A program made the translations under genes and the position numbers. DNA of 64,000 nucleotides from an uncultured Gemmatimonadaceae bacterium. Its GTDB lineage: Bacteria; Gemmatimonadota; Gemmatimonadetes; Gemmatimonadales; GWC2-71-9. Below the pieces are notes generated by a model. It did no database searches. It worked only from the letters and a program-made list of their open reading frames with translations, and had not been told where the DNA came from. Positions 10,297 to 54,178 of the stretch are shown here, piece by piece. Numbering within the stretch: the stretch's first letter is position 1; each line of letters starts with the position of its first letter. Location: NCBI GenBank assembly GCA_964465315.1, contig CAYXIK010000008.1:21735-85734 (forward strand), in the 5' to 3' direction.

Positions 10297-10393
10297 TTCG
10301 GTTTCTGTCCGCAACACCTCGCTCGCTTCCAAGTCGCTGGGGCGCCGCGTGCTACGCGCGCCGTGGTGACGCTCGAATCCCCTTGCAGGTCCT

Positions 10394-12209: not shown

Positions 12210-12341
12210 CCGTAGGGTTGCAGTCTGTAACGTCGGAGATGGAAACGGCTTGCGGAACATGCGTGACGCGCGGGGACGGGCGTGGGTCTCAACGGTGAAG
12301 CGGGCCAGGGTGGTCCGCGCTCCCTCCGGAGGTATAGAGAC

Positions 12342-12551: not shown

Positions 12552-12560
12552 GCGGCTGAG

Positions 12561-13796: not shown

Positions 13797-13825
13797 CGGC
13801 GGGGAAGATAGCGGGCGGCTCTCGC

Positions 13826-13854
13826 TTGTGTAACCGCCCGGCGTCTCGTATCAT
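13826..13854 (+). promoter_or_regulatory. Sigma70-type promoter TTGTGT-N17-TATCAT
   Basis: About 30 nt upstream of ATG 13883. Confidence 0.45.
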
Positions 13855-13882
13855 AGCACAACCTTCCCGGGAGGCCCGTTCG

Positions 13883-14998
13883 ATGTCGGAACCGTTCTTG
13901 AGCTCCGACGATTACGACGAACGTGCACATCAGCTCTACAACGAAGCACGATACGACGACGCCATCGACACCCTGAAAGCCGGCCTGGGGCTGTATCCCC
14001 ACGCCGTCGAGCTGCACGTGGGCATGGGCTATGCGCGCCTCGCGCGCGAGGAGTATCTGTGGGCGCGCCGGGCCTTCGAGGAGGCGGTCGGCCTCGACCC
14101 CGAGCACGAGGATGCGCTCGCCGGGCTCGGTGAGGTTCTTCTCAAGTTCGGTGACCGCGCCGGAGCGGTCGCGTGCTTCGATCGCATCGTGGCCCTCGGG
14201 TTTCGAGATGACCACGACCTCATGCTTCAAGTCGGGCGGGCCCTGTTCCGTGAGGGCGTGTTGGACCAGGCCCGGCGCTTCTTCGAAGTGGCCATCACCG
14301 GGCATCCGGACTCGGCGGAGGCCGCCGCGTGCGTGGGCTACGCCGCCCACCGGCTGGCGGACGAGGGCGGCGCGCTCTACTGGCTCCGGCGCGCGCTCGA
14401 GCTGGACCTCGAGCACGCCGAAGCGCGAATCTACCTCGCCAACCTGCTGTACGACCGCGGCGAGTACGAGGCCGCCCTCTTCCACTTGGAGCGCAGTGAG
14501 CCGAGCGACCATTTCGACGGTCTCGCCATCTGGCGGCTGATCGAGCTCAAAAGGAGCGTCTACCGCCTCGCCGACGACGACCCCGAGCTTGTGCCGTGGC
14601 ACCATCGGCTCGACGAACTCGCCGCCGATGCCGCGCCCGATGACCTGCTCCTCGCCGAGATCGAGGCGATGGGGCCCGACGGCCAGATTCGGGACCCTCG
14701 CCAGCTCGAGCTGTTCGGCACGCTCCTCACCGAGCTGCAGGGGATGAAGGCGCGCTCGGGGGGGGAAGTCCATCGCATCAGCATGCTCAACGGCGCGACC
14801 TACGTCGGCACGTGGGAAGAGATCGTACGGCAGATGAAGGACGATGCGGCGGAATGGGCACGCGGCTCGCTCGAGCAGTACATGGCCGCGGTGGCCAATC
14901 GCGGGCGGAAAGAAACCGGGGTCGCGATCCCGGCGACGGATCCGGAGAGCTTCATCAGAGGGAGCGCCGATGCGGGGCTCCTTCGGATTCTCCACTAG
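13883..14998 (+). CDS. TPR-repeat protein with a small uncharacterised C-terminal domain
   Basis: GGAGG RBS; several TPRs (ALAGLGEVLLKFG, ARIYLANLLYDRGEYEAA). Confidence 0.8.
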   Translation: MSEPFLSSDDYDERAHQLYNEARYDDAIDTLKAGLGLYPHAVELHVGMGYARLAREEYLWARRAFEEAVGLDPEHEDALAGLGEVLLKFGDRAGAVACFDRIVALGFRDDHDLMLQVGRALFREGVLDQARRFFEVAITGHPDSAEAAACVGYAAHRLADEGGALYWLRRALELDLEHAEARIYLANLLYDRGEYEAALFHLERSEPSDHFDGLAIWRLIELKRSVYRLADDDPELVPWHHRLDELAADAAPDDLLLAEIEAMGPDGQIRDPRQLELFGTLLTELQGMKARSGGEVHRISMLNGATYVGTWEEIVRQMKDDAAEWARGSLEQYMAAVANRGRKETGVAIPATDPESFIRGSADAGLLRILH

Positions 14999-15082
14999 CC
15001 GCGACAATCCGCTGAGCAGCCGGTAACAGGCCGGGGAAAGGGGAGGAGTGGCTCTTCTCCGGCCGTTTACGCGTTCCTGGCT

Positions 15083-15472
15083 TTACACGGTCGAATGCTT
15101 GAGCTTCACGGCGATCGAAAGTGGCCCGTCCCCTAGAGCGACGAGCGTAATAGCTCCCGCGAACAGCAACCCTTCCAGCTCGATATTCGCGCCGTGTGGC
15201 AGTCTCACCGCCAGGATGGCCACAGCCATCTCCACGGCCATGCAGATGGCCCACAGGCGCGTGAAGATCCCGAGGATGACGCAGGTGGCGCCGATCGTTT
15301 CGATCGCAATGAGGATCACGGCGAACACTGTGGCGAACGGGAACCCGACCTCGTGCAGGAACGTGGCGGTCGCGGGAATGCCATGGTGAAATTTGGTCAA
15401 GCCGTGCAGTAAGAACACGCCGCCCACTGCGAGGCGCATGAAGAATGCCGCGTAGGGGGTGAGTCGGTTCAT
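15083..15472 (-). CDS. DoxX-family membrane protein
   Basis: RLAVGGVFLLHGLTKF, IETIGATCVILGIFTR; GGAGG RBS. Confidence 0.85.
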   Translation of the reverse strand: MNRLTPYAAFFMRLAVGGVFLLHGLTKFHHGIPATATFLHEVGFPFATVFAVILIAIETIGATCVILGIFTRLWAICMAVEMAVAILAVRLPHGANIELEGLLFAGAITLVALGDGPLSIAVKLKHSTV

Positions 15473-15834
15473 GAACCCTCCGGGTGGATGGCTTGGGTCA
15501 CGGGGCCCCGCCGGCGCGCGCCGGTGCGGACTTCGCGCGCCCCGAAGCGTTTGACGATCACGTCGAGACCCCGCTGTGGTAGGGCACCGCCCAGACCCGC
15601 TACGTCGACGAAGCACAGTCCCGCCTCCGGCAAGCCGTGCAGGGCGACGTGCCCGCCGTGGCACACGAGCGCCGCCGAGACCCCTCTCGGCCCGAGCTTC
15701 ACGACCGGCGGGTTCGCCGGATTCAATCCAGCGGCGTTCGCCGCTGCGAGCAGCACGCCGGCGAGCGCCTGGTCGTCGGTGAGGCGGTTCGCGGGGATGC
15801 CTCCCAGATCAGCGAAGACGTGGTCGAACGTCAA
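15469..15834 (-). CDS. AdoMet decarboxylase (SpeD)-fold protein lacking the E-S autocleavage site
   Basis: TTG start overlaps the upstream stop; HVFADLGG...GPRGVSAALVCHGGHVALHGLPEAGLCFVDV aligns by eye with SpeD [28 protein letters not shown]. Confidence 0.68.
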   Translation of the reverse strand: MTFDHVFADLGGIPANRLTDDQALAGVLLAAANAAGLNPANPPVVKLGPRGVSAALVCHGGHVALHGLPEAGLCFVDVAGLGGALPQRGLDVIVKRFGAREVRTGARRRGPVTQAIHPEGS

Positions 15835-16961
15835 CCGCTGCAGCTTGCCTGATAGGTGAGCAGCGGAGCCACGAACGTTCCCCGGATGACTTCGGCGCCC
15901 AGCGGATCGTCGTACAGATCGGTGCGCTGCGCCGTGAACTGATAGCGGCCGCTGATGATCGCCCCACCGCCCGCCGCCGGGGCGTACTGCGTGATGATCA
16001 ACTGTCCCGCGACCTGACTGCTCGACGTGCCGTGCGAGTAGGAGCGGATGCCCGGTGTGGGAAGCGCGCTGAACCACAACGCCCAGGGCCGCTTCGGCTG
16101 GCAGAAGGCGCTGAGTTGACTGATCGTGGTCGTCGCCTCCGCCGGGCTGATCGAATCGATTTCGTACGTACCCGTAGCGATCACCGAGTCGGGCAAGGTG
16201 ATCACGACCTTCTCGTCGATCGTGGAGCCATTGGCCAGCGTGTCGCGCAGTTGAAACGCCAGCTTCCCGTTCAACCGCTGGTAATTGCGCGCTCTGGCCT
16301 GGCCGCCCTGATGCCGCACCGCGGACCCGAGCGCCGTCATGAAGAAGTGCCCGACCTCGGTCGTGTCGGTCAGTGTGAGCACAACGACGAAGCTCGACTC
16401 GGAAACGGTGGTGGTGCCGTCGGTCAGATGCGCGCGGTAGCGGATCGGACCGCCGGTGGCGTGGGCGGTCACCTCGCCGCTCAGGGTGTCGATCGTGATG
16501 ACACTCGGCGTCGTGGAGCTGTCGAATGTGAGCGTCGTCGGACCCGGGGTCCTCTGTTTGATGGCGCGCGGGATCGTGATCGTATCGCCCGGCATCACGA
16601 AGATCGTGTCGAGCAGCAGGCTCAGGTCGAGGGGACGCGATACGACGACGACGGCCCCACTCTGCGCGCCGGCCACCGTGGCGACGACCACCGCCGTGCC
16701 CCGCCCGATCCCCGCGACCTTCCCCGACGTATCGACGGTGGCGACCGTCGGCGGACTGACGCTCCACGTGATGTGACCTGGAGGATGCCGGCTGCCGTCG
16801 CTGTCGAGGATGTACACGGTTCGGGGTGGGAGCGTGTCTCCCACGAAGGTCGAGTCAAGAACCGGGCCGATGATCAAGAACTGCTGGCCGGTGCCGGAGA
16901 CGTTCACGCAAGTCAGGGAGGTGGATGCGACGAGGAGGAGCGCGAACAAGGATCGTTTCAT
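15831..16961 (-). CDS. Lipoprotein with Ig-like (Big_2-type) domains
   Basis: Lipobox SLTC; ITWSVSPPTVATVDTSGKVAGIGRGTAVVVAT. Confidence 0.75.
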   Translation of the reverse strand: MKRSLFALLLVASTSLTCVNVSGTGQQFLIIGPVLDSTFVGDTLPPRTVYILDSDGSRHPPGHITWSVSPPTVATVDTSGKVAGIGRGTAVVVATVAGAQSGAVVVVSRPLDLSLLLDTIFVMPGDTITIPRAIKQRTPGPTTLTFDSSTTPSVITIDTLSGEVTAHATGGPIRYRAHLTDGTTTVSESSFVVVLTLTDTTEVGHFFMTALGSAVRHQGGQARARNYQRLNGKLAFQLRDTLANGSTIDEKVVITLPDSVIATGTYEIDSISPAEATTTISQLSAFCQPKRPWALWFSALPTPGIRSYSHGTSSSQVAGQLIITQYAPAAGGGAIISGRYQFTAQRTDLYDDPLGAEVIRGTFVAPLLTYQASCSG

Positions 16962-17054
16962 AGTCGCCTAAGGTTGAGAGGGTGCGGTCGCGAGCCGCCG
17001 GAAGCCGTGGGTATCCTATGGAACACCGGGAGCGTCCGATTGCTCCGGCCCGGC

Positions 17055-18081: not shown

Positions 18082-18609
18082 ATGCGTAGGGCATGGCTCG
18101 TCGTGCTCCTGCTCGCGGGCGGGACGCCGCTGCTCGGCGCGCAGGAGTTCCATCCGCCGCCCGTGCAACGGTCCGGCGACCACGGGACGAGGTTCGGCCT
18201 GTTCGGCTTTGGCGTACGCGGCGGCGTGGACGCGTCGGGGCGCAAACAGATGGTGTTCGGCGTCACGCTCGACGCCGGCCACCTGTTCGGCTCGCGTTTC
18301 CGCATCCGGCCATCCGGCGAGATCGGCGTGTTCAATGGCGTCAACAGCTACATCGGCAGCATGGAAGCCCTGTATCGCTTCACGCCCGACGATCAGACGG
18401 CGACGCCGTACGCCGGCGGGGGGTTCAGCATCGTGGGGCACGACGCCTGCGGCGCCGACCCCGATTGTCCGGACCTCTGGGTCAACCTCGTCGTGGGCGT
18501 GGAGCTCCACTATCGCTCGACGTTCAACTGGCTGATCGAGTATCACGCGATGGATCACTTCAACCACAGTCGATTCTACGTGGGGTTAACCACGCGGCGG
18601 GGCAACTGA
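18082..18609 (+). CDS. Small outer-membrane beta-barrel protein
   Basis: AAGGAGG RBS, signal peptide, amphipathic strands, PYAGGG. Confidence 0.65.
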   Translation: MRRAWLVVLLLAGGTPLLGAQEFHPPPVQRSGDHGTRFGLFGFGVRGGVDASGRKQMVFGVTLDAGHLFGSRFRIRPSGEIGVFNGVNSYIGSMEALYRFTPDDQTATPYAGGGFSIVGHDACGADPDCPDLWVNLVVGVELHYRSTFNWLIEYHAMDHFNHSRFYVGLTTRRGN

Positions 18610-18610
18610 G

Positions 18611-19021
18611 ATGGCGAGCCGGATCGCCGAGGTCACGATGCGCTGGCGCGAGCGCCTCGTGTTCGAAGCTGGTGCCCCGGGCCGACCGCTCGTGCTCGTG
18701 GACGGAGACGGCACGGTCGCGACGTCCCCCGTCGAGATGCTGCTGGTGGCCGCGGCGACCTGCACGGCGTCGGACGTCGTGCTGATCCTCGAGAAGCAGC
18801 GGGTCGCCTTGCGTTCGCTCGAGGCAAAGGTGCAGGGCACTCGTCGTGAAGAGCAGCCTCGGCGCTACACCGCTCTCCACTTCGTCTTCACCATTGCGGG
18901 AGACGGGGCCGACGAGGTGAAGGCACGCCGCGCGATCGACCTGTCGCTCGAGAAGTACTGCTCCGTGGTGGCGTCGCTCGCCCCCGACATCCGTATCAGC
19001 TACGACGTCCAGCTTCGCTAA
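18611..19021 (+). CDS. OsmC/YhfA-family protein
   Basis: SPVEMLLVAAATCTASDV, RRAIDLSLEKYCSV. Confidence 0.9.
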   Translation: MASRIAEVTMRWRERLVFEAGAPGRPLVLVDGDGTVATSPVEMLLVAAATCTASDVVLILEKQRVALRSLEAKVQGTRREEQPRRYTALHFVFTIAGDGADEVKARRAIDLSLEKYCSVVASLAPDIRISYDVQLR

Positions 19022-20046: not shown

Positions 20047-20364
20047 ATGGGCGACACGTCAGACGAAGTGTACGGTCCGGAGCGCGCAAAGCGTCTGCTG
20101 GCGCTGCTGCGCGGTCTGGCGGAGCGGATTCAGTCGCTGGACGGAAGCGGGCAACTGCTCGAGCGGGTGCCGGAGCTGCAAAAGCTGCTCGGGAACGCGC
20201 GCAGCGAGCTGTTCCACTATGAAGTGCGACTCACGTACGATACTCCGGAAATCGCGGAGAGCCGGCGCCTCGTCGAGGAGGCGGAGCAGCGGGCGTTGGA
20301 CGCGACGGCCGGTTTCGAGGACGAGGAGGACGACGAACCGTGGCGGAGGGCTCGGGACGAATGA
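20047..20364 (+). CDS. Acidic helical hypothetical protein
   Basis: GGAAGG RBS; ATGA overlap with the dsbA-like gene. Confidence 0.65.
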   Translation: MGDTSDEVYGPERAKRLLALLRGLAERIQSLDGSGQLLERVPELQKLLGNARSELFHYEVRLTYDTPEIAESRRLVEEAEQRALDATAGFEDEEDDEPWRRARDE

Positions 20365-21014
20365 ACCGGTTCTATCTGCTGCTCGTGGCGGTGGCGCTCA
20401 TCGGTGGCGGCATGCTCTGGTACGGATCCCGGCAAGAGGCTGCACCGGCTCCGAACGCGCCGGTTCCGGTCGCGGCCGCGGACGGGTTCCAGGGCTTCAC
20501 CCTGGGCTCGGACTCCGCGAAGGTGGAGGTGACGGAGTACTCCGACTTCGAGTGCCCGTTCTGCGCGTCGTTCGCCACGGTCCAGATGCCGGTGATCCGC
20601 CAGCAGCTGATTGCCACCGGCAAGGTGCGCTGGCGGTATCGCGACTTCCCGTTGCCCACCCACCAGTACTCTCGGTACGCCGCGCTCGCGGCCCAGTGCG
20701 CGGGTGAGCAAGGGAAGTTCTGGGAGATGCACGACCAGCTCTTCGCCAATCACCAGTGGGCCCAAACCGGGAAGAACCCCTCGGCGCTGTTCCGTGATTT
20801 CGCGAAGACCATCGGCCTAGAGGTCGACAAGTACGACGCCTGCATGGACGGCCAGCGATACGCCGGGCGAATTCAGGCGAGCGTGGAGGAGGGGGAGAAA
20901 CAGGGCGTGCGGGGCACGCCCAGCTTTTTCGTGAGCGGCCACCCCTTTCGGGGACGCGCCACCTCCGACGACTTCAAGGCCCTGGTCGACAGTCTGACAA
21001 CAAAGCACAAGTGA
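20361..21014 (+). CDS. DsbA-family thiol-disulfide oxidoreductase
   Basis: N-terminal TM; EYSDFECPFC; RDFPL; cis-Pro GTPSF. Confidence 0.9.
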   Translation: MNRFYLLLVAVALIGGGMLWYGSRQEAAPAPNAPVPVAAADGFQGFTLGSDSAKVEVTEYSDFECPFCASFATVQMPVIRQQLIATGKVRWRYRDFPLPTHQYSRYAALAAQCAGEQGKFWEMHDQLFANHQWAQTGKNPSALFRDFAKTIGLEVDKYDACMDGQRYAGRIQASVEEGEKQGVRGTPSFFVSGHPFRGRATSDDFKALVDSLTTKHK

Positions 21015-30851: not shown

Positions 30852-31819
30852 GCCAATACCCCACTCGCCGGATGCGCCGGCTGCGTCGCACGTCGGCCCT
30901 GCGCCGGTTGGTGCAGGAGACGCATCTCGTGCCCTCGCAGCTCGTGTGGCCCCTCTTCGCGTGCCACGGGGATGGCGTGCGGAGCGAGGTGGCGACCTTG
31001 CCCGGGGTGTACCAAACGTCGGTCGATGAGCTGGTCAAAGACGCCGAGCGGGCACAGCGCCTCGGGCTCGGGGGAATCATCCTGTTCGGCCTTCCAGCGG
31101 CCAAGGACAGCACGGGCTCGGAGGCGTACGACGAGCAGGGCATCGTGCAGGAGGCCACCCGGGCGGTGAAGCAGGCGGTGCCGGAGCTACTCGTGATCGG
31201 CGACGCGTGCCTGTGCGAGTACACCGATCATGGCCACTGTGGCGTCGTGCACGACGGCGAGGTGGACAACGACGCGTCGGTGTATTTGCTGGGCAAGGTG
31301 GCCGTGACGCAGGCGCGCGCCGGGATCGACATGGTGGCGCCGAGCGACATGATGGACGGTCGGGTGGCGGGCATTCGCAAGGCGCTCGACGCCGCGGGGT
31401 TCTCCCACGTCCCGATCATGTCGTACGCGGCGAAGATGGCGTCGGCGTTTTACGGACCGTTCCGCGAGGCGGCGGGCTCGACGCCGCAGTTCGGTGATCG
31501 CCAATCTTACCAGATGCAGGGGACCAATGGCGACGAGGCGATGAAGGAGATCCAGCTCGATGTCGCCGAAGGCGCGGACATCGTCCTGGTGAAGCCGGCA
31601 CTGCCGTGCCTCGATCTCATCCGTCGCGCCAAGCGGCAATTCGGCTCACCGCTGGCCGCATATCAGGTGAGCGGCGAGTATGTGATGATCAAGGCGGCCG
31701 CGGCCCGCGGCATGCTCGACGAGGAGCGCGCCATGTGGGAAACGTTGTACGCCGTCCGCCGGGCCGGGGCGGACATCATCCTCACGTATTTCGCGCCTAC
31801 TGTCGCCGAGCTGCTCTAG
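30848..31819 (+). CDS. hemB: Porphobilinogen synthase (Zn-type)
   Basis: CLCEYTDHGHCG, APSDMMDGRV, YAAKMASAFYGPFR, VKPA. Confidence 0.96.
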   Translation: MSQYPTRRMRRLRRTSALRRLVQETHLVPSQLVWPLFACHGDGVRSEVATLPGVYQTSVDELVKDAERAQRLGLGGIILFGLPAAKDSTGSEAYDEQGIVQEATRAVKQAVPELLVIGDACLCEYTDHGHCGVVHDGEVDNDASVYLLGKVAVTQARAGIDMVAPSDMMDGRVAGIRKALDAAGFSHVPIMSYAAKMASAFYGPFREAAGSTPQFGDRQSYQMQGTNGDEAMKEIQLDVAEGADIVLVKPALPCLDLIRRAKRQFGSPLAAYQVSGEYVMIKAAAARGMLDEERAMWETLYAVRRAGADIILTYFAPTVAELL

Positions 31820-32499
31820 CGACGGGGCAGCAGCACCGCCTTCCACAGCGCACCAGCGACACTGGCTCCGATCAGCGGGCCGATCCAATACACCGCGTGC
31901 GCGTCCCACTGCCCGGCGATCACCGCAGGCCCGAGGGCCCGGGCCGGGTTCATGACGGCCCCGGTCAGGCTCCCACCTACTAAGACGTCGACGAAGATCG
32001 CGAGGCCGATGCCGAACCCCGCGATCTTCGGCGCCTCGGACGACACCGCCGTCCCGAAGACGGCGCTTACCAGGAAGAACGTGAGCAGCGCTTCGATCCA
32101 GACGCCCTGCATGAATGTCATTTCGCTCGCGAGCCGCGGCGTGCCCACGAGCGCGGTGGCGACGGCGACGTGCGGGAACAGCGCCTTCACGAGAGCGGCG
32201 CCGGCGATGGCGCCGAGCAGCTGGGCCACGATGTACGGCCCGACCAGTCGGCCGTCGAACCTGTTCGCGATCCACAGGCCCACACTGACGGCGGGGTTCA
32301 TGTGACCGCCGGAGATGCTCATCGTCATCGACACGATGATTGCCATGCCGACGCCATGAGCCAGGGCCACGCCCAGGGGACCAATGCCGCCCGTCGTTGG
32401 TCCGTTGGCGATGAACGCCACCACGCTGCCGGCGCCAAGGAACACGAACAGCAGGGTGCCGACGAACTCGGCCGTGAGCGGCCGGAGCTGCTGAGGCAT
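31816..32499 (-). CDS. MIP/aquaporin family channel
   Basis: AEFVGT, GGHMNPAVS, MNPARALGP. Confidence 0.93.
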   Translation of the reverse strand: MPQQLRPLTAEFVGTLLFVFLGAGSVVAFIANGPTTGGIGPLGVALAHGVGMAIIVSMTMSISGGHMNPAVSVGLWIANRFDGRLVGPYIVAQLLGAIAGAALVKALFPHVAVATALVGTPRLASEMTFMQGVWIEALLTFFLVSAVFGTAVSSEAPKIAGFGIGLAIFVDVLVGGSLTGAVMNPARALGPAVIAGQWDAHAVYWIGPLIGASVAGALWKAVLLPRR

Positions 32500-32543: not shown

Positions 32544-33788
32544 CTACGGTCGCCGCAACACGACCGCCGCGTTGATGCCACCGAAGCCGAACGAGTTGGT
32601 GAGGACGACGTCGGGCGACGCATCGCGCCCTTCACCGCGCAGGCAGTCGAGATCGCAGGCGGGGTCGGGCCGCTCCAGGTTGATCGTGGGGGGGAGCCAG
32701 CGCCGCTCCATGGCGAGCGCGCAGATCGCCGCCTCGATCGCTCCGCTCGCGCCGAGCGCGTGGCCATAGTAACCCTTGGTGCCGCTGACGCTGAGCCGGT
32801 ACGCGTGGTCTCCGAACACCTGCTTGATGGCGGCGGTTTCGGTCGAATCGTTGAGCGGCGTGGACGAGCCGTGCGCGTTGATGTACCCCACTTCGGGGGG
32901 CGCCACGTGTGCGTCCGCCAGGGCCAGCTGCATGGCGCGGGCGGCCTGGCGGCCGTCGGGGCGGGGGGCGGTCATGTGGTACGCGTCGTTCGTGAACCCG
33001 TAGCCCACCAGCTCGGCGTAGATCTTCGCCCCACGCGCGACCGCCCGACTTCGCTCCTCGAGCACCAGGACCGCGGCGCCCTCGCCCATCACGAAGCCAT
33101 CCCGATCCTCATCGAACGGTCGCGACGCATGGGCCGGGTCGTCGTTCCGCGTACTCATAGCGCGGATCACGCTGAACGCGGCATACGTCATCGGGGCTAA
33201 CGGCGCCTCGGCGCCTCCGGCCAGCATCACGTCGGCGCGGCCCGCGCGGATCGTGTGGAACGCTTCTCCCACGGCGATCGTGCCCGACGCGCAGCTCATG
33301 GCGTTGGTGGAATTCGGTCCGGTGAATCCGAACTCGATGGCGATGTTGCAGCTCGCGGCCCCGGGGAACACGGCCAGAGCGAGCGCGGGATCGAGCCCGC
33401 GCGGTCCTTCCGCGCGGAACCTCGCCACCTGCGACTCGGCGAAGGCCACGCCCCCGAGCGCGGAGCCCATCATCGCGCCCACCTGATCCCGGTCTTCGCG
33501 CGCCGGGTCGAGCGCCGCGTCGGCGAGTGCAAACCGCGCGCTCGTCACCGCGAGCTGGGAAAACCGGTCGAGCCGCTTCGCCCGCTTCGCGTCGAGATGA
33601 TCCTGCGGGCGAAAGTCGGGGATCTCGGCGGCGATGCGACTGCGGAACGGGGTCGGGTCGAAGCGGGTGATCTCGCGCACGGCCGAGGCGCGGGCCGCGA
33701 GCCCCGCCCACAGACCCTCCGCGGCCGTGCCGATCGGCGTCACCGCCCCGACGCCCGTGATCACCACTCGCCGTAATCCGTTTTTCAT
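32544..33788 (-). CDS. Beta-ketoacyl-ACP synthase (FabF/KS-alpha-like), catalytically intact
   Basis: RRVVITG, SCASG (Cys), NAHGSSTPLND, KGYYGHALGA, NSFGFGG. Confidence 0.92.
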   Translation of the reverse strand: MKNGLRRVVITGVGAVTPIGTAAEGLWAGLAARASAVREITRFDPTPFRSRIAAEIPDFRPQDHLDAKRAKRLDRFSQLAVTSARFALADAALDPAREDRDQVGAMMGSALGGVAFAESQVARFRAEGPRGLDPALALAVFPGAASCNIAIEFGFTGPNSTNAMSCASGTIAVGEAFHTIRAGRADVMLAGGAEAPLAPMTYAAFSVIRAMSTRNDDPAHASRPFDEDRDGFVMGEGAAVLVLEERSRAVARGAKIYAELVGYGFTNDAYHMTAPRPDGRQAARAMQLALADAHVAPPEVGYINAHGSSTPLNDSTETAAIKQVFGDHAYRLSVSGTKGYYGHALGASGAIEAAICALAMERRWLPPTINLERPDPACDLDCLRGEGRDASPDVVLTNSFGFGGINAAVVLRRP

Positions 33789-34261
33789 CCTCGCGCTCTC
33801 CCCTCCTGCTCGATGACCCGCTTTATCCCCGACAGCGTTCGCTTCGCGATCCCGCGGATGAACACCGGTCCGATCACGAGACGTGCCGCGAGCGAGCCGA
33901 TGATCGGCCACGCGGGGCCGGTCCACTCATGCTCGATCGTCACATCGACACCGTGCGGTTGCGCCACGAGCCGCCAGCGGACGTCCATACCGCGCGTGAT
34001 ACCCCAGACATGGCGGTAGCGGATCTCGTGCGCGCCGGGATCCACAATCATGTTCGACACCCACCGTGCCGGATAGCGGATCACGCCGAACGGGCGCCAG
34101 GCCGCCATCTCCACGCTTCCCCCTCCCGTGCCGTCGGTCCCGTGAAGGAACCGAACCCAACGATAGTGCGGCAAAATCCGCGGCCACCGTTCGACGTTCG
34201 CTGCGACCTCGAAGACGCGCCCGATTGGCGCGCGGATGGTGATCCGGTCGACGGTCCGCAT
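33785..34261 (-). CDS. SRPBCC/START-family polyketide cyclase-like protein
   Basis: ITIRAPIGRVFEVAANVERWPRILPHY, IRYRHV, GMDVRWRL. Confidence 0.8.
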   Translation of the reverse strand: MRTVDRITIRAPIGRVFEVAANVERWPRILPHYRWVRFLHGTDGTGGGSVEMAAWRPFGVIRYPARWVSNMIVDPGAHEIRYRHVWGITRGMDVRWRLVAQPHGVDVTIEHEWTGPAWPIIGSLAARLVIGPVFIRGIAKRTLSGIKRVIEQEGRARG

Positions 34262-34263
34262 GG

Positions 34264-34956
34264 TCAGGCTGCCGGCTCCCACGCCGCCACGATACGGAAG
34301 CCTGCCCGATGGCGCGCCCGCGCGGGCACGCCCGCCTGGGAGAGCAGGGCGTCGAACTCGGCCCGCGTGTAGCCCCGCCGGAGCGATACAACGGCATCGT
34401 GCCGCGTCAGACCGCCCATCGCGAGCCCGAAACACGCGGCCCACACGCCGGCCATGGCGACGCGCGAGCGGCGGAGATCGGCGAGCACCACCACCCGACG
34501 GGCGACGCGATCGAACTCGCTCACCCAGCGTGCGGCCGTCGCACAGGGCACGTGGTGCAGCACCTGGCTCGCCACGATCACGTCCACCGAGCGGGACGCG
34601 AGCGGCAGCGCGCCGCCATCCGCCAGGATCGACGCGAGCGGCACGTCGCGCTCGGCAACGCGGGCGAGCCGCGCCGCGGTCCTGTTGCGCTCGACCCCCA
34701 CGAGACGAAGTGTGATCCCATGCCTCCGGGCCGCGCGGGCGGCGGCGCGGGGGATGTCGCCGAATCCCGTGCCGACGTCGAGCAGCGTCCAGTGCTTGGC
34801 TCCCCCGGCTGTGCCCCGCGCAAAGAACGGCGTGAGCTCCCGCACCACCGCCCGCGTCCCACCGAAGAGCGTGTTCAGTCGTGCGATGTCGCGCAGCTCG
34901 CGGTCCACGGCCCGTGGGTCGGCCCGCGGATCGTCCAGCAGCTCCGTGCCGATCAT
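34264..34956 (-). CDS. Class I SAM-dependent methyltransferase
   Basis: ELLDDP...LRDIARLNTLFGG, LLDVGTGFGD, SQVLHH, DLRRS. Confidence 0.85.
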   Translation of the reverse strand: MIGTELLDDPRADPRAVDRELRDIARLNTLFGGTRAVVRELTPFFARGTAGGAKHWTLLDVGTGFGDIPRAAARAARRHGITLRLVGVERNRTAARLARVAERDVPLASILADGGALPLASRSVDVIVASQVLHHVPCATAARWVSEFDRVARRVVVLADLRRSRVAMAGVWAACFGLAMGGLTRHDAVVSLRRGYTRAEFDALLSQAGVPARARHRAGFRIVAAWEPAA

Positions 34957-35435
34957 GTGTCCGCGAGACCCGTGTAGCTGCTCCGGTAATACAGCAGCGG
35001 CCGGCGGTCGGACACGCTGCCGCCCGTGACCAGGCCGAAGAACACCGTGTGGTCTCCGCCCGGCGCCTCGGCCTGCTTTTCACATTCGATGCTCGCCACT
35101 GTGCCCTCGATGATGGGAAGGGCATGCCCCGAGTCCCGATAGGGGACTCCGTCGAAACGGTCGGAATGCTCCGCCGCGAAACGTCGCGACAGCGCTTCCT
35201 GATCGTCGGCCAGCACGTTCAACACGAACCGCGAGGCCGCCCGTAACGCCGGGTGCATGTCGTTCGCCTGGTCGATCGACACGAGCACGAGGGGCGGGTG
35301 GAGCGAGACCGAGGCCACGGAGCTCGCGGTCATGCCGATGGGACGGCCCGCGGGGTCGCGCGTGGTCACGACGGTGACGCCGGTGGCAAAACGGCCGAGC
35401 AGCTGACGAAACAGAGCGGGATTGACGCCGGGCAT
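34953..35435 (-). CDS. Flavin reductase family protein
   Basis: FRQLLGRFATGVTVVT, GMTASSVASVSLHPPLV, GGDHTVF, PLLYY. Confidence 0.92.
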   Translation of the reverse strand: MPGVNPALFRQLLGRFATGVTVVTTRDPAGRPIGMTASSVASVSLHPPLVLVSIDQANDMHPALRAASRFVLNVLADDQEALSRRFAAEHSDRFDGVPYRDSGHALPIIEGTVASIECEKQAEAPGGDHTVFFGLVTGGSVSDRRPLLYYRSSYTGLADT

Positions 35436-35439
35436 CCCG

Positions 35440-36651
35440 TCACCAGAGGAGTTGGGCGAGGACGCGCGGAGCGAGCACACGACCCGCGGGCACCGTATTC
35501 CCGGCCGCGCTGACCAGAAGATCCGCGAGGTCGGAACGCCGCGCCAGGCGACGGACGACGCGGTTGGTGAGCGCGGGCCAGCCGACGCCCACGCCGATCA
35601 GGCGCTCGAGCATCCACTTCCCGAGGAATGCGCGCCTTCGCGCCCGTGCGTAGGGCCGGAGCATCCCGGCCGTGACTGGTGCACGGGCCCCGCGCGCGAG
35701 CACTGGAACCAGGCAGTCCGCCGCGAGCTCGGCGCCGCGTAGTGCGGTATGAATGCCCTGTCCGGTGAACGGGTCGAAGAAGTCCGCGGCATCGCCCACG
35801 AGCAGCGCTCCACCTCCTGGCGCGACGGCCGTACGCGACCACTGTCCGAACGGGCCGGTCGCGAGAACGCCCCGCACCAGGCGATGGGGGTCAAACCTGC
35901 CGGCGAGTCCCGGAAACCGGTCGAGTTCGGCGAAGAAGTCGTGGCGGTGGTCCCGTCGCAACTGGCGCACCGGCACCACCAATGCAACAGTCGTGATCCC
36001 GTCGCCCACCGGGCCAAGCCCCACGTACCCCCGATTGCTCACGTGCAGCTCTCCCATGCCGTCGACGCCGGCCACGTCCGCCACGTGCGCCGTGAAGGCC
36101 ACGCGCCGCGGTGGCGCGGTGCGCACCAGGCCGAGTCGCCGCGCGACGAAAGAGTGAAGCCCGTCGGCTCCAATGGTGACCCGAGCCCGACATACAGCAC
36201 GCGCGCCGGTTGCGGACCGCGCGACGACTCCGGCGACGGCGCCGCCCTCCGACACCAGCTCATCGACCATGACCCGCTCGTGCACCACGGCTCCGGCGCG
36301 GGCCGCGGCCGCGACGAGGATCGAGTCGAACGTCGTGCGGGGCAGAGCGAAGCTGTACGGTCGCGGGGCATCGAGGAACCGGCCGCACATGGCTGCCCCG
36401 TCGGGCGCGACCACCTTCATTCCGTAGAGCTTTGCGTGTGGCGCGCCTTCGACGGCGCCGAGGATGTCCTCTCCCAAGCGCTCGAGGATCGCCGTCGTGG
36501 CTGGGCTCAGGTATTCGGAGCAGGGCTTGTCGCGAGGGAATCGGGCGCGGTCGAGGACTAGTACTCGTCCACCGGCCCGAGCGAGAAGCAGCGCGCTGGT
36601 CGCGCCGGCGGGGCCCGCTCCGACCACCACCGCATCCCAACCGTCCGTCAT
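35440..36651 (-). CDS. FAD-dependent oxidoreductase (geranylgeranyl-reductase/halogenase-like superfamily)
   Basis: VVGAGPAG, FPRDKPCSEY, IGADG, LVGDAADFFDPFTGQGI. Confidence 0.88.
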   Translation of the reverse strand: MTDGWDAVVVGAGPAGATSALLLARAGGRVLVLDRARFPRDKPCSEYLSPATTAILERLGEDILGAVEGAPHAKLYGMKVVAPDGAAMCGRFLDAPRPYSFALPRTTFDSILVAAAARAGAVVHERVMVDELVSEGGAVAGVVARSATGARAVCRARVTIGADGLHSFVARRLGLVRTAPPRRVAFTAHVADVAGVDGMGELHVSNRGYVGLGPVGDGITTVALVVPVRQLRRDHRHDFFAELDRFPGLAGRFDPHRLVRGVLATGPFGQWSRTAVAPGGGALLVGDAADFFDPFTGQGIHTALRGAELAADCLVPVLARGARAPVTAGMLRPYARARRRAFLGKWMLERLIGVGVGWPALTNRVVRRLARRSDLADLLVSAAGNTVPAGRVLAPRVLAQLLW

Positions 36652-36688
36652 ACGATCCGCCGAAGCGGGCAGCCCCGCACTACGATCA

Positions 36689-37372
36689 TCACCGTGGCGC
36701 GTGCGCTCCGATTGCCGCCACGGCGGCACCCACGAGGGTGGCTGCGAAGTTCACGCCGTCGTTGTCGAGCCATCGCACTCCCATCATGAGCCGTACCGGC
36801 TCATGACACACCGTATTCCCGCGCTCGAATCGCGCGTCACACGCGGGGCACGCGTACTTGCCCTGGAGCGTCGCGCCCAGGACCGAGTCCGCAAGCATGC
36901 CCGCGGCGCCAGCAACCACCAGGAGTGAAAACCCCGGGGCCACGCCCCGGGGTGAAAGCGAGACTGCGAGCCCGGCAATCAGCGCAGCCCCCGCCACGCC
37001 GCCAAGCGTCCCGAGCAGCGTGATACCCCCTGAGGTGCCGCGGGTCACGCGCCGCCAGGTCGTCGCGAGGCGAGGTGGGATGGGGGAAAACGCTCCGATC
37101 TCCGTGGACCACGTGTCGGCCGCCGCGGCGGCGATGGCTCCCGCTGCCGCGGCCCAGGATCCGAGCAATGCGGCGACTGCGGCGACGCCGCCGTTCGCGA
37201 GCACCTGCCTCGCGGTGCGGTGCGGGGAGCGACGCTCGGCCAGCTGCGTGAGGATGCTACCGGAAAGAAAAAAGGCCGCGAGCACCGCCAGCCCCGGCCA
37301 ACCCCACCCCCACGTGACTCCGATCCCCACGGCGCAGGCCGCCACCAGCCCGCCCGGGGTGAGCCATCTCAC
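36689..37372 (-). CDS. DUF92-family membrane protein
   Basis: RTARQVLANG, AADTWSTEIG, GTSGGITLLGT, DSVLGATLQ, NDGVNF. Confidence 0.85.
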   Translation of the reverse strand: MRWLTPGGLVAACAVGIGVTWGWGWPGLAVLAAFFLSGSILTQLAERRSPHRTARQVLANGGVAAVAALLGSWAAAAGAIAAAAADTWSTEIGAFSPIPPRLATTWRRVTRGTSGGITLLGTLGGVAGAALIAGLAVSLSPRGVAPGFSLLVVAGAAGMLADSVLGATLQGKYACPACDARFERGNTVCHEPVRLMMGVRWLDNDGVNFAATLVGAAVAAIGAHAPR

Positions 37373-37593
37373 TCGTCGAACAGCTCGTTCAAGATGCGGC
37401 GTTTCAGCTCGGGAGGCGCGCCCTGTGCCCGGCACCGGGCCTGGAGGAATTGCAAGAACAGCTTTTCGAAATCGAAGTGCTCGCCGCAGGGAGGACACTC
37501 GACCAGATGCTCGCGGATGTCCCGCTCCACCTCGGGCGTGAGCTCGCGATCGAGGTACTCGTAGAGGTGCTCTTTGCACTCCCGACAATTCAT
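37369..37593 (-). CDS. Zinc-binding (ZAS) cytoplasmic anti-sigma factor, RsrA/RshA-like
   Basis: C...[10 protein letters not shown]...HLVECPPC (HxxxCxxC); no TM. Confidence 0.88.
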
Positions 37594-38213
37594 TTCGAGC
37601 TCCCCTTGATGTACCCCATGCCGACCGCGTAATCGTACAGCTTCTGCTGGAGCAGCCGGCGGGCCCGAAATAGCCGGGATTTCACCGTCCCCACCGGCAC
37701 CTCCAAGACTCGCGCGATCTCCTCGTACGACAATCCCTCCACGTCGCTCAACACCACGGTCTCCCGGAATTGTTCCGGGAGAGTGTCTATGGCGCGTAGG
37801 ACCTCGTCGTCCACGATGCGATCGAAGAACGTCCCCTGGGGGTCGTCGTCCTGGACCTCCTGAAAGACGGAGAACGGCTCGATAGCGTCGATATCGACGG
37901 TCTCGGGGTGCCGCGTGCGCCGGCGGTATTCATTAATGAAGGCGTGACGCAGAATCGTGAGAAGCCACCCCTTGGCATTGGTCCCTCGCTCGAACTGATG
38001 CCAGGCCCGATACGCCTTGAGCATCGTTTCCTGCACCAGGTCGTCGGCCTCGGCAGGGTTCCCGGTGAGGCGGAGCGCGACCCGGTACAGACTGTCGAGG
38101 TGGACCAGCGCCTCGCGCTCGAAGCTCGCGCGCTTCTCGGCTTCGGCTGCGGAGCCCCCCGGCGCAGGGGGGGCGGGCGGGGCAGGAGGGACCGGCGGGT
38201 TGGGGGGCGTCAT
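37590..38213 (-). CDS. ECF sigma factor, SigR/SigH-like
   Basis: [47 protein letters not shown]. Confidence 0.92.
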
Positions 38214-38222
38214 GGCGTGCCG

Positions 38223-38249
38223 TAACCTCTCCCCACTCGCCTGGGTTTC
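38223..38249 (-). promoter_or_regulatory. SigR/SigH-type promoter GAAAC-N18-GTTA just upstream of the sigma ATG
   Basis: Resembles the GGAA(T/C)-N18-GTT consensus; -10 ends 9 nt before ATG 38213. Confidence 0.55.
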
Positions 38250-38284: not shown

Positions 38285-38890
38285 GTGGTCCACAGTATCG
38301 TGCCACTCGCCGTCCTCGAGGCGGTCAAGAACCTCGACACACCGGTCGAGGACGGGCTATCGGAATTCGCCGAAGAGCTCCTGTCGAAGCGTCTCGGCCT
38401 TTCTCCGACCGTCGCCATGCAACTCCGCGAATACGAAGTGATGGTGCGGCGCAACGCCGCCCCCGACCCGTCGCATGTGGAGGCGCTGTTGCGGCTCGTG
38501 GGGCGCCGTCCCGACGCGGACCTGGTGTTCGCGGACGCCGGACGCCGCGCCGCCCGGCGCGGGGTGCGCGGCCTGTTCACCGTTACGCGCCTGGCTGCCC
38601 GCGCCATCCCCCGGGCGTTTGGATACGTGGCCGCGCGGCGGGCCGCTCGCGCCGTTTTCGGGGGGGAGCTGAACCGGGAGAGCCAGATCCCCGTGGCGCG
38701 GGTGAGGGATCCACTGGCCCTCAACGCGACGCCGGACGGCGCCGCCTGCGGGCTGTATGGCGCCGGGTTCACCGAGCTCCTGCGGCTGCTCGTGGGCTTC
38801 GAGGGTGCCATGCTTCATGTGTCCTGCCGGGCGACGGGAGGCACCGCTTGCGAGTGGCGCGGCGCGCCGCCCGATCCGAGACATCACTGA
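38285..38890 (+). CDS. Hypothetical protein with a C-terminal V4R-like Cys-containing domain
   Basis: [14 protein letters not shown]...[14 protein letters not shown]. Confidence 0.65.
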
Positions 38891-50030: not shown

Positions 50031-50054
50031 CTTCCCTTCGCCGCCACGTATGTT
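50027..50054 (+). promoter_or_regulatory. Putative sigma70 promoter TTGACT-N16-TATGTT for pilBTC
   Basis: Overlaps the comEA stop and abuts ATG 50055. Confidence 0.4.
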
Positions 50055-51787
<1,733 letters not shown>

Positions 51788-51791
<4 letters not shown>

Positions 51792-52951
51792 CGGCTGGCG
51801 CGTCGCAAGGGCTCAATCTCCGCTCCCTGCTCGAGGAGATGATCGAGAAGGACGCTTCGGACCTGCACATCGTCGCGGGTGAGCGTCCCAAACTCCGCGT
51901 CGACGGGGACATCGTGAACGCGGGCGTCGACGCCGTCCTCACGCCAAAGGACACACTCTCGATCGCCTACTCGGTCCTCACCGAGAACCAGAAGAAGCGG
52001 TTCGAGACCGAGAACGAGCTCGATTTCTCGTTCGGGATCCAGAACCTCGCGCGCTTCCGCGGCAACTGCTTCAAGCAGCGCGGGTGCGTGTCGCTCGTCA
52101 TCCGGCAAATCCCGTTCAACGTGCGGACCTTCGAGGAACTGGGGCTGCCGCCGGTCGTGGCCAAGCTGGCCGAGAAGCCGCGCGGGCTCGTCCTCGTGAC
52201 AGGGCCCACCGGGTCAGGCAAGAGCACGACCCTCGCCGCGATGGTCGACAAGATCAACAAGGAGCTGAAGGGCCACATCATCACGGTGGAGGACCCGATC
52301 GAGTTCATCCACCGCCATCAGGCCTGCATCGTCAACCAGCGGGAGATCGGGACCGACACGAACAGCTTCGCGTCGGCGCTCAAGTATGCGCTGCGGCAAG
52401 ACCCGGACGTGGTGCTCATCGGCGAGATGCGGGACCTCGAGACGATCGCCGCCGCCCTCACCATCGCGGAGACGGGGCATCTCGCCTTCGCGACGCTCCA
52501 CACCAACTCGGCGATGGAGAGCATCAACCGCATCATCGACGTCTTCCCGTCGCACCAGCAGGCCCAGGTGCGCGCGCAGCTGTCGTTCGTGCTGGAAGGC
52601 GTCATTACCCAGACGCTCCTCCAGAAGATCAAGGGTCGCGGCCGGGTGATGGCGGCCGAGATCCTGGTGATGACCCCAGCAGTCCGCGCGCTGATCCGCG
52701 ACGAGAAGATCGAGCAGATCCCGTCGATGATGCAGGCGGGCAAGAAGCACGGGATGCAGACTCTGAACGACGCGCTCTATCAGCTGTACGTGGGCCGCGA
52801 GGTCACGAAGGACGAATGCCTGCGCGTGACATCGACGCCGAACGAGTTCCTGCGGATGATCGGCGAGCAGCCCATGGACGAAAAGGACGTGCTGTCGCCG
52901 ACCGCGGCGCCGCAGCAACCCGGCGCCGGCAAGGTCGCGGCTCGTCGTTAA
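51788..52951 (+). CDS. pilT: Type IV pilus retraction ATPase
   Basis: ASDLH, GPTGSGKST, TVEDPIE, ALRQDPD, AETGH, ATLHT. Confidence 0.95.
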
Positions 52952-52972
52952 GCGCCCGGAAGGGAGTGAGCC

Positions 52973-54178
52973 ATGCCGGTCTTTCAGTACACCGCCCGCA
53001 CGCTCAAAGGCGATCTGGTCAACGACAAGATCGACCTGCCGACGCGGGACGACGTCATCGCGCACCTGCGCAAGAACCGCATGGTGGTGGTGCAGGTCCG
53101 GGCGGCGCCGAAGGAGTTCAAGCTCAGCCTGAAGTTCGGCGGCGGCGTCCGGACCCGCGACGTCGTCGTCTTCACGCGCCAGTTCGCCACCATGATCAAC
53201 GCCGGCTTGCCCTTGGTGCAGGCCCTCGACATCCTGGCGCAGCAGACCGAGAACAAGATCCTGGCCGACGTCACCCGCCAGGTGGTGTACGACGTGGAGA
53301 GCGGCCAGACGCTCGCCGACGCCCTCCGCAAGCACCCGAAGGCGTTCAGCGACCTGTACGTCAACATGGTCGCGGCGGGTGAAGCGGGCGGTATCCTCGA
53401 CACCATTCTCGTCCGGCTCGCCGAGTTCCTCGAGAAAAACGACGCCATCGTACGCAAGGTGAAGGGCGCGATGATCTACCCAGGCGTCATTCTCTCGGTG
53501 GCGGTCATCGCCGTATCAGTGCTGCTGATTTTCGTGATTCCGACCTTCCAGAACATGTTCGCCTCCGTCAACCTGCAGCTGCCCCTGCCGACACGGATCG
53601 TGATCGGCGCGAGCAGCGTGCTGAAGAGCTACTGGTGGGCCATCCTCGGGGTCATCGGGTTCGCCGTCTTCGGCGTCAATCGGTACTACAAGACCGCGGC
53701 GGGCCGTCTCCAGATCGACACGCTGCTGCTCAAGATGCCGGTGCTGGGCGATGTGCTTCGCAAGGCCGCCGTGTCGCGCTTCACGCGGACGCTCGGGACC
53801 CTGATCTCGTCGGGCGTGTCCATCCTCGACGGCCTGGAGATCACGGCGCGCACCGCCGGGAACATGGTGATCCACAATGCAGTGATGGAGTCCCGCGCGT
53901 CCATCGCGGGTGGCGAAACCATCTCGGCCCCGCTCGCCAAGTCCAAAGTGTTCCCGCCGATGGTGATCTCCATGATCTCCGTGGGCGAGCAGACCGGCGG
54001 TATGGACGAGATGCTGTCGAAGATCGCTGACTTCTACGACGACGAGGTGGACGCCGCCGTGAGCGCCCTGCTGTCGCTCATGGAGCCGGTCATGATCGTC
54101 GTGCTGGGCGTGATCGTCGGCGGTATGGTGGTAGCCATGTATCTGCCGATCTTCGACATGGTGAACGCGGTGCAGTAG
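52973..54178 (+). CDS. pilC: Type IV pilus platform protein (GspF family)
   Basis: FTRQFATMINAGLPL, AGEAGGILD, GAMIYP, GEQTG, MYLPIF. Confidence 0.95.
   Translation: MPVFQYTARTLKGDLVNDKIDLPTRDDVIAHLRKNRMVVVQVRAAPKEFKLSLKFGGGVRTRDVVVFTRQFATMINAGLPLVQALDILAQQTENKILADVTRQVVYDVESGQTLADALRKHPKAFSDLYVNMVAAGEAGGILDTILVRLAEFLEKNDAIVRKVKGAMIYPGVILSVAVIAVSVLLIFVIPTFQNMFASVNLQLPLPTRIVIGASSVLKSYWWAILGVIGFAVFGVNRYYKTAAGRLQIDTLLLKMPVLGDVLRKAAVSRFTRTLGTLISSGVSILDGLEITARTAGNMVIHNAVMESRASIAGGETISAPLAKSKVFPPMVISMISVGEQTGGMDEMLSKIADFYDDEVDAAVSALLSLMEPVMIVVLGVIVGGMVVAMYLPIFDMVNAVQ

Follow-up and report, generated by a model that had tools for sequence, protein, structure and literature searches.

A four-gene cassette pairing an SRPBCC protein with a FabF-like ketosynthase, conserved in Gemmatimonadota and other phyla, may produce a ketide-derived lipid

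The srsABC genes of Streptomyces reportedly form an operon for alkylresorcinol or alkylquinone synthesis. Operons that combine a methyltransferase, a flavin adenine dinucleotide (FAD) oxidoreductase and a type III polyketide synthase (PKS) are found in cyanobacteria (hidABC) and, 58 in number, in planctomycetes, where they lead to alkylresorcinols; in operons of the hidABC type, the alkylresorcinol made by the PKS is later methylated and hydroxylated (PMC10896814, PMC6836626). Some ketosynthase (KS) clusters, such as brt and microcarbonin, encode no acyl carrier protein (ACP) and rely on acyl-ACP taken from primary metabolism (PMC6836626). Here, we compare these systems with a cassette of four genes, encoding a class I S-adenosylmethionine (SAM) methyltransferase, an FAD flavoprotein, an SRPBCC protein and a FabF-like KS, present in an uncultured Gemmatimonadaceae bacterium (GenBank assembly GCA_964465315.1). 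The DNA analyzed, henceforth referred to as the window, comprises 64,000 nucleotides of contig CAYXIK010000008.1 (positions 21,735 to 85,734 of the forward strand), and coordinates refer to this window unless another locus is named. The cassette forms the downstream part of a minus-strand operon (32544–38213) headed by genes for an extracytoplasmic function (ECF) sigma factor and a zinc-binding anti-sigma (ZAS) protein. A first-pass annotation, made from the letters of the same DNA alone, had treated the eight genes from the sigma factor to the KS as one set.

The SRPBCC protein, chosen as the most pathway-specific protein of the set, was used as probe for related loci. The Gemmatimonadota set comprises the best 80 genome loci from the SRPBCC scan, all from metagenome-assembled genomes (MAGs) of this phylum, which were searched by tblastn with the window proteins. 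Other phyla were reached via a profile of distant SRPBCC representatives, and a metagenome scan seeded with distant SRPBCC members yielded 80 further loci of other lineages. The KS gene is found directly downstream of the SRPBCC gene in 145 of 145 loci (79/79 in Gemmatimonadota, 66/66 in metagenome loci of other lineages). The flavoprotein gene adjoins the SRPBCC gene in 56 of 56 Gemmatimonadota loci and lies directly upstream of it in 50 of 54 other-lineage loci, and a methyltransferase gene is present in 43/56 and 31/33 loci, respectively. The remaining genes of the window operon were detected in none of the 80 other-lineage loci, while in Gemmatimonadota the flavin reductase is present in 46/56 loci, the aquaporin follows the KS in 47/63, and the sigma factor (25/44), the anti-sigma factor (27/44) and DUF92 (at least 24/44) occur within 6 kb upstream. 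Because the four genes are conserved across phyla while their surroundings change, methyltransferase, flavoprotein, SRPBCC protein and KS are the functional unit, with the SRPBCC-KS pair as its invariant heart; sigma and anti-sigma factor, DUF92, flavin reductase and aquaporin were added to it within Gemmatimonadota. Joint conservation is therefore seen for the four core genes and not for the eight as one unit. The SRPBCC family comprises 598 clusters at 50% identity and thousands at 90%, and the cassette is present in at least 590 species-representative loci of GTDB and in hundreds of metagenome contigs.

The distant contigs belong to Limnocylindrales (Chloroflexota), Baltobacteraceae-type bacteria, a planctomycete-like MAG and others, with surroundings that are otherwise unrelated. 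The order methyltransferase, flavoprotein, SRPBCC, KS is found in loci L087, L089 and L091 and in most metagenome loci, whereas L088 carries flavoprotein, SRPBCC and KS, and L090 and L092 the SRPBCC-KS pair alone. The SRPBCC stop codon overlaps the KS start in the window (a 4-bp ATGA overlap) and in six of seven distant loci. Natural fusions also link the core proteins: methyltransferase and SRPBCC are fused in P0132 and P0237 (403 and 408 residues), flavoprotein and SRPBCC in P0245 (520 residues), which hints at an assembly of the proteins. Gemmatimonadota layouts comprise the window type, the window type without methyltransferase, operons headed by DUF92 without sigma or anti-sigma gene (L046, L051, L053, L065, L080, L174), a Gemmatimonadaceae layout described below, and divergent lineages with only flavoprotein/methyltransferase, SRPBCC and KS (L015, L061, L079 and others). 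Overall, tailoring genes can be dispensed with more readily than the SRPBCC-KS pair.

Some individual variants were observed besides. A Gemmatimonadales subclade has lost the methyltransferase (L012, L017, L018, L022, L023, L025, L027, L031, L033 and others), so that the flavin reductase gene ends some 6 bp from the start of the SRPBCC gene. The methyltransferase of L174 is divided between two short open reading frames (ORFs), and the flavoprotein looks truncated or frameshifted in L015 and L173. In the 306-residue protein P0211, a cytochrome P450 fragment stands ahead of the SRPBCC part.

Both in the cassette and in the hidABC, mtr-fdo-t3pks and srsABC operons, a SAM methyltransferase and an FAD oxidoreductase are encoded directly upstream of the condensing enzyme. 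The hidABC-type order matches the cassette order in Limnocylindrales and in most loci outside the Gemmatimonadota; the order in the window differs, running from flavoprotein through flavin reductase and methyltransferase to SRPBCC and KS. The type III PKS-linked oxidoreductase of G. maris carries the same FPRxKxC motif as the cassette flavoprotein, and type III PKS operons take fatty acyl primers from primary metabolism, as we propose for the cassette. What differs is the condensing machinery, as an aromatase/cyclase (ARO/CYC)-like SRPBCC protein and a FabF-clade KS stand in the place of the PKS; no Chal_sti_synt-type (type III PKS) gene was found in the window or the related loci. We regard the resemblance as an analogy of layout, not as demonstrated orthology.

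A likeness to type II PKS systems (TcmN, WhiE-ORFVI, ZhuI, BexL) lies in the joint encoding of a KS of the KAS I/II fold and a helix-grip ARO/CYC homologue. Unlike these systems, the cassette has no chain-length factor (CLF), dedicated ACP or ketoreductase, and its KS groups with FabF instead of KS-alpha. A single KS is present in more than 160 loci, and neither a KS-alpha/CLF pair nor a dedicated ACP was found in them. Within the 64-kb window, no ACP, second KS, fabG, fabD, type III PKS or UbiA prenyltransferase gene was detected, bearing out the annotated absence of an adjacent ACP, CLF, fabG or fabD. Likewise, tblastn searches of about 1.5 Mb of related loci, with the ACP of E. coli and the KS of the window as queries, revealed no ACP or second KS, and an ACP homologue was found in 0/80 other-lineage metagenome loci. 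The cassette KS also differs from FabF in context, since in the 145 loci it is never found beside acpP and always directly follows the SRPBCC gene. DarB is said to be FabH-like, not FabF-like, and to condense two chains head to head. The DarAB and BrtCD systems resemble the cassette in that fatty-acid intermediates are turned into a resorcinol lipid by a ketosynthase together with an aromatase, and some of the clusters are ACP-less (PMC6836626). In the full-text literature searched for SRPBCC with ketosynthase or FabF, for Gemmatimonadota type II PKS and for DUF92 with geranylgeranyl reductase, the combination is not described.

The KS (32544–33788, 414 residues, with N- and C-terminal ketoacyl-synt domains) carries the intact Cys-His-His triad noted at first reading, namely Cys166, His306 and His343, which, together with Lys338, are invariant in cassette members; its NSFGFGG motif is as in FabF. 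Its best solved relatives in the Protein Data Bank (PDB) are the FabFs of Synechocystis (424 bits) and B. subtilis (423 bits), compared with 322 bits for actinorhodin KS-alpha and about 225 bits for FabB. Five of six KSs from other phyla score 445–481 with the fabF model TIGR03150, below its cut-off of 493.75, and only that of L088 passes. Cassette KSs are 46–65% identical to one another across phyla and 37–50% identical to four housekeeping FabFs, which share 50–59% among themselves, likewise across phyla. In a neighbour-joining tree, cassette KSs and FabFs are split in 300/300 bootstraps; the references are these four FabFs only, from Cyanobacteria, Firmicutes and Proteobacteria, with the E. 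coli sequence entered by hand, not from a database, and no housekeeping FabF of Gemmatimonadota. Contrary to organismal phylogeny, sequences from Gemmatimonadota and of Chloroflexota type are intermingled in the cassette clade. At six positions, all members of this clade share a residue other than the one invariant in FabF: A110, L111, F141, A144, S165 and S308, corresponding to FabF G107, I108, I138, M141, A162 and T305. The substitutions fall at positions of the FabF pocket, A162 preceding the catalytic Cys and I108 being a known acyl-pocket residue. The KS thus appears to be a FabF-family enzyme in the broad sense that stands outside the housekeeping group, as represented by the four references; to this extent, the tree agrees with the first-pass expectation of a KS distinct from housekeeping FabF.

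The SRPBCC protein (33785–34261, 158 residues, Polyketide_cyc) is related to type II PKS aromatases/cyclases. Searched against the PDB, the family profile matched the N-terminal domain of BexL (E = 5e-21), WhiE-ORFVI (7e-12), TcmN (4e-9) and ZhuI (7e-8), compared with 6e-4 only for the RatA/COQ10-like protein CC1736, and a search with the single sequence already matched TcmN, BexL and WhiE. An AlphaFold (AF2) model of high confidence (predicted local distance difference test, pLDDT, 91) retrieved TcmN, ZhuI and WhiE as top Foldseek matches, with template modelling (TM) scores of 0.75–0.83. Family hallmarks are the motifs WPxxLPHYR and GxTRGMxVxW; W26, P64, W67, H84, G91 and W96 are among the invariant residues, and H32, Y33, R34, R56 and H111 are nearly invariant. 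Tyr33, invariant in the family, is the equivalent of Tyr35 in TcmN and WhiE. No curated NCBIfam model covers the protein, and some members are named COQ10 in the JGI annotation.

The flavoprotein (35440–36651, 403 residues, FAD_binding_3) resembles geranylgeranyl reductases (GGRs). Its best NCBIfam match is GG-red-SF (TIGR02032), at 143.5 below the cut-off of 158.8, and weak matches to the MenJ and UbiH families were also obtained. GxGPAG, PRxKxCxE, GADGxxS and GDAAxxxDPFTGxG are invariant in cassette members. The closest sequence neighbours in the PDB are FADH2-dependent halogenases, at the top, and the archaeal GGR lipid reductase. These top matches, together with the adjoining flavin reductase, had given rise to the idea of a halogenase, which was rejected because the flavoprotein has no WxWxIP/WxWxxP motif and its GGR-type Cys motif is kept throughout the cassette members. 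Beside the flavoprotein gene lies a gene for an electron donor, either the flavin reductase in Gemmatimonadota or a small ferredoxin (L090, L091, L163). The methyltransferase (34264–34956, 230 residues, Methyltransf_11/25) is PRK06202-like, with 142 bits below the cut-off of 243, and the methyltransferases of cassettes in other phyla also match Ubie_methyltran (UbiE/COQ5). BioC-like, cyclopropane-synthase-type and mycofactocin methyltransferase readings were dropped, as model matches did not support them.

We propose, at a probability of roughly 0.5, that the cassette makes a ketide-derived, tailored lipid; we go no higher because the FabF-like KS, the missing CLF and the missing cyclase Arg (see below) oppose an iterative polyketide reading. 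Without a carrier protein of its own, the cassette would draw on the fatty-acid synthase (FAS) of the cell. The homodimeric KS would load a fatty acyl group from acyl-ACP and condense it with malonyl-ACP, and the unreduced beta-keto or poly-beta-keto product would be received by the helix-grip pocket of the SRPBCC protein (His32, Tyr33, Arg34, Arg56, His84, His111), which would direct cyclization, dehydration or release. The expected product is an alkyl chain bearing a ketide-derived head group, and most likely a lipid of the phenolic, pyrone or quinol type, for which the strongest argument is the alkylresorcinol operon order with SRPBCC-KS in the position of the PKS. The flavoprotein might then hydroxylate or reduce this product, with the flavin reductase as its electron source in the window and, in some other lineages, a ferredoxin encoded nearby, and the methyltransferase would methylate it. 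In the lineage of the window, oxidation of the zinc-binding anti-sigma factor would free the sigma factor and thereby switch on the whole unit, a mode of induction that would concern roughly half of the Gemmatimonadota loci. In a narrower version of the proposal, SRPBCC protein and KS would together constitute a minimal 'proto type II PKS': the homodimeric FabF-clade KS and the single-domain ARO/CYC homologue would assemble the head group of an aromatic or pyrone lipid directly on the ACP of the FAS, with neither a CLF nor a dedicated ACP. We put this version forward tentatively and consider it doubtful.

A number of findings weigh against a ketide-derived lipid. The window KS scores 529 with TIGR03150 and thus passes the fabF cut-off. 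In PDB alignments, it is 48–49% identical to the FabFs of Synechocystis, B. subtilis and Listeria, and it is 42% identical to the E. coli FabF sequence entered by hand. A profile of nine cassette KSs gave the same ranking as the single sequence, the FabFs standing about 100 bits above actinorhodin KS-alpha. Because the KS is so FabF-like, a single FabF-type condensation is favoured over iterative extension without a CLF, and the missing CLF itself counts against iterative polyketide extension. Moreover, the KS evolves as slowly as hemB (e.g., 97% versus 93% and 91% versus 89%), as would likewise be expected of an essential enzyme of the housekeeping kind. In the SRPBCC protein, the equivalent of Arg69 is missing, its position being occupied by Met in the window protein and by Gln in most other members, as opposed to Arg in BexL and WhiE. 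Tyr35 and Arg69 are pocket residues defined by the structural work on TcmN, in which Arg69 is reportedly essential. The cassette methyltransferase and flavoprotein are only about 25–32% identical, over fragments, to the type III PKS-linked pair of G. maris, for which the comparison DNA was a machine-read supplement containing indels. Finally, the sigma and anti-sigma genes are missing from many cassette-bearing relatives.

The claims of the first-pass annotation on chemistry are accordingly upheld in part. Its parallel between the methyltransferase and FAD oxidoreductase and those of type III PKS operons finds backing in the published operon order and in the position of SRPBCC-KS elsewhere, and is weakened by the remote identity of the proteins. 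The related idea that a FabF-like KS and a cyclase replace the type III PKS agrees with the positional match in other phyla, but the KS is much nearer to FabF than to KS-alpha. As for the SRPBCC protein as a type II PKS cyclase, homology is evident by profile and structure, but not the Arg69 equivalent; it is a polyketide cyclase homologue with a catalytic-looking pocket that is not assignable as a TcmN-type cyclase. With no type III PKS, no CLF, no ACP and no catalytic Arg, the cassette, which is uncharacterized, belongs neither to the type III PKS operons, which it resembles in layout, nor to the type II PKS systems, of which its pairing of KS and cyclase homologue is a stripped-down likeness.

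The FabF-like character of the KS and the lack of a CLF are equally what would be expected if the cassette tailored fatty acids. The KS would then be a specialized paralogue of FabF that elongates an unusual acyl-ACP once; the SRPBCC protein would bind the acyl chain or act as a dehydratase, the flavoprotein would reduce or introduce a C=C bond, and the methyltransferase would methylate, the product being a branched, keto or hydroxy membrane fatty acid. GGR-family enzymes typically hydrogenate C=C bonds, and PRxKxCxE is invariant in the flavoprotein; the SRPBCC protein has no cyclase Arg; and strong purifying selection, with wide vertical presence in Gemmatimonadales, suggests a core membrane component. 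This explanation is nevertheless unlikely in our view, since the methyltransferase has no CMAS match and is not of the cyclopropane or mycolic-acid synthase type, the SRPBCC protein is nearest to polyketide ARO/CYCs in both sequence and structure, not to lipid-transfer START proteins, and the gene order parallels that of alkylresorcinol operons.

If, alternatively, the KS were simply the FabF of the organism, its neighbours would be unrelated or loosely linked and merely syntenic. Its fabF score and its hemB-like conservation would fit such a role, and no second KS was seen in the DNA searched, which is uninformative given that only about 20 kb per genome was covered. We consider this improbable in view of the separate cassette KS clade, which joins Gemmatimonadota with Chloroflexota and others, the failure of five of six other-phyla members to reach the fabF cut-off, and the constant adjacency to SRPBCC, never to acpP, whatever the wider context. 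Quinone tailoring is more improbable still. Here, a UbiE/MenG-like methyltransferase and a MenJ/GGR-like flavoprotein would modify menaquinone, with the SRPBCC protein as a COQ10-like chaperone and the KS as a passenger. The Ubie_methyltran matches in other phyla, the weak MenJ/UbiH similarity of the flavoprotein, the COQ10 names given by JGI and the presumed kinase activity of DUF92 relatives on polyprenyl phosphates all point in this direction. On the other hand, the supposed passenger is the most constant partner of the SRPBCC protein, the SRPBCC profile matches ARO/CYCs far better than CC1736, and the cassette contains no prenyltransferase or men/ubi gene.

In soil and rock, Gemmatimonadota, Limnocylindria (Chloroflexota) and Eremiobacterota are abundant but have seldom been cultured, and hardly anything is known of their lipids and small molecules. 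Because the cassette is intact in so many GTDB loci and metagenome contigs, it very likely encodes a physiologically important molecule, to which the slow evolution of the KS also points. If a KS and a cyclase make a phenolic or quinone-type lipid, this would be a new enzymatic logic for such lipids and would inform the origin of aromatic polyketide synthases from fatty-acid synthases; in the lineage of the window, a membrane antioxidant or redox lipid would moreover be linked directly to a thiol-stress switch. A proto type II PKS, if real, would join type III PKS and DarAB as the third way in which bacteria make phenolic lipids. It would also represent an extant stage between the synthases of fatty acids and those of aromatic polyketides, and would be a core trait of the Gemmatimonadales, the Limnocylindria and related groups. 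With its length of about 3.5 kb, the cassette is easily tested by heterologous expression.

Turning to the operon of the window, gene models were established by ORF listing, inspection of start codons and Pfam and NCBIfam scans, which reproduced the gene calls, overlaps, gaps and coordinates annotated before: nine co-oriented minus-strand genes including the aquaporin. The ECF sigma gene (37590–38213, 207 residues, ATG start, SigR/SigH-like, Sigma70_r2 and r4_2) overlaps the gene for the small soluble ZAS protein of the RsrA type (37369–37593, 74 residues, zf-HC2) by 4 bp, and the latter overlaps by 4 bp the gene for an integral membrane DUF92 protein (36689–37372, 227 residues, GTG start, PF01940, 193 bits). 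A gap of 37 bp separates DUF92 from the flavoprotein gene, which is followed after 4 bp by a gene for an HpaC/StyB-like flavin reductase (34953–35435, 160 residues, PF01613, 152 bits, with NCBIfam reductase-component models). The flavin reductase and methyltransferase genes overlap by 4 bp, 2 bp separate methyltransferase and SRPBCC, and 44 bp separate the KS from the gene for a MIP-family aquaporin (31816–32499, 227 residues, PF00230, 192 bits). One transcription unit is likely, as the genes from sigma to DUF92 overlap by 4 bp each and the gaps farther downstream are short, and the aquaporin is probably co-transcribed. Terminator-like hairpins in the operon region occur at chance level only, and every one lies inside a gene. 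The sequencing runs containing the window are DNA only (rock metagenome); in a single RNA run, 4% of words were common and short contigs of less than 90% identity mapped only to conserved KS stretches, a result uninformative on co-transcription. GC content is even across the gene cluster, which is flanked on one side by hemB/hemC/hemD and ccm genes and on the other by the conserved 201-residue protein, an M24 peptidase and CtaA.

ZAS proteins of the RsrA/RshA type release their sigma factor upon thiol oxidation. The anti-sigma factor of the window passes the RsrA equivalog model (TIGR03988 antisig_RsrA, 66.4; cut-off 62.5), and its HxxxCxxC motif (H29-x3-C33-x2-C36) and N-terminal Cys3 are kept in 35 of 35 relatives, which confirms its assignment as RsrA-type. 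The best NCBIfam match of the sigma factor, TIGR02947 SigH_actino, reaches 175 bits, below the cut-off of 251, and only the general sigma70-ECF model is passed. As in SigR-RsrA of Streptomyces and SigH-RshA of Mycobacterium, an ECF sigma factor is encoded with a small soluble ZAS protein by overlapping genes and is probably autoregulated. The pair of the window differs from SigR-RsrA in that the strict GGAAT-N18-GTT motif is absent, biosynthetic genes are fused directly to the pair, and the phylum is another one, which is not known to contain mycothiol. The strict SigR motif (GGAAT-N16-19-GTT) has three matches in the window, where chance alone would give 2.5, and all of them lie away from the operon. 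A candidate ECF-type promoter, GAAAC-N18-GTT, is located at 38224–38249 on the minus strand, read 10 nucleotides upstream of the sigma ATG, and overlaps a Shine-Dalgarno-like GGAGAGG. At this site, close relatives have GGAAC-N18-GTT, or GGAAC-N17 followed by CCTT, along with a conserved downstream element. The linkage of the sigma/anti-sigma pair with the cassette is confined to this lineage. DUF92, whose relatives we take to be polyprenyl-phosphate kinases (VTE6), is also present in Gemmatimonadota loci without sigma and anti-sigma genes. In the Gemmatimonadaceae layout mentioned above (L082 2937–5417, L173 4980–7441), a lone ZAS protein, 49–50% identical to that of the window and without an adjoining sigma factor, is followed by DUF92, after which a gene for a B12-binding radical SAM enzyme intervenes before that of the flavoprotein.

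Divergent from the operon head lies a gene for the conserved protein of 201 residues (38285–38890, plus strand), found within 6 kb upstream in 36 of 44 Gemmatimonadota loci. It is retained also where sigma and anti-sigma genes are absent, and the M24 peptidase is always next. The protein has no Pfam match at 1e-5; its Cys-rich C-terminus gives a V4R (small-molecule-binding) hit below the cut-off (E = 0.005, 17 bits). The protein may work alongside the operon as a ligand sensor.

Further observations concern genes near the cassette in other lineages and elsewhere in the window. Downstream of the cassette in L089 (11139–15068), genes for an EgtB-like protein (DinB_2 and FGE-sulfatase), GCS2 and an ECF sigma/RskA pair were found, placing ergothioneine-type thiol genes beside the cassette in another lineage. 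In one lineage (L090 and L091, around 9670–15300), genes for an ABC ATPase, a large FtsX/MacB-type permease and an AttH-like protein follow the KS, with a thiolase gene after that of the ATPase in L091 only; this set may serve to export the product. On the plus strand of the window, thiol-redox and peroxide genes encode a DsbH/DUF255 thioredoxin-like protein, OsmC and a DsbA-like thioredoxin (8347–10296, 18590–19021, 20223–21014), none with a strict SigR motif. A second ECF sigma gene (190 residues) overlaps that of a 226-residue AMPK1_CBM/CBM48 glycogen-binding-type protein (10370–11547, plus strand), which would be an unusual candidate anti-sigma partner. A 378-residue ORF at 15831–16967 (minus strand) has a coding-type GC content at third codon positions (GC3) of 0.85 and no Pfam match at 1e-5. 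Lastly, type II/IV secretion ATPase and platform genes at 50031–54178 (plus strand) show a markedly higher GC3 (0.93) and a lower overall GC content (0.64–0.65) than the rest of the window.

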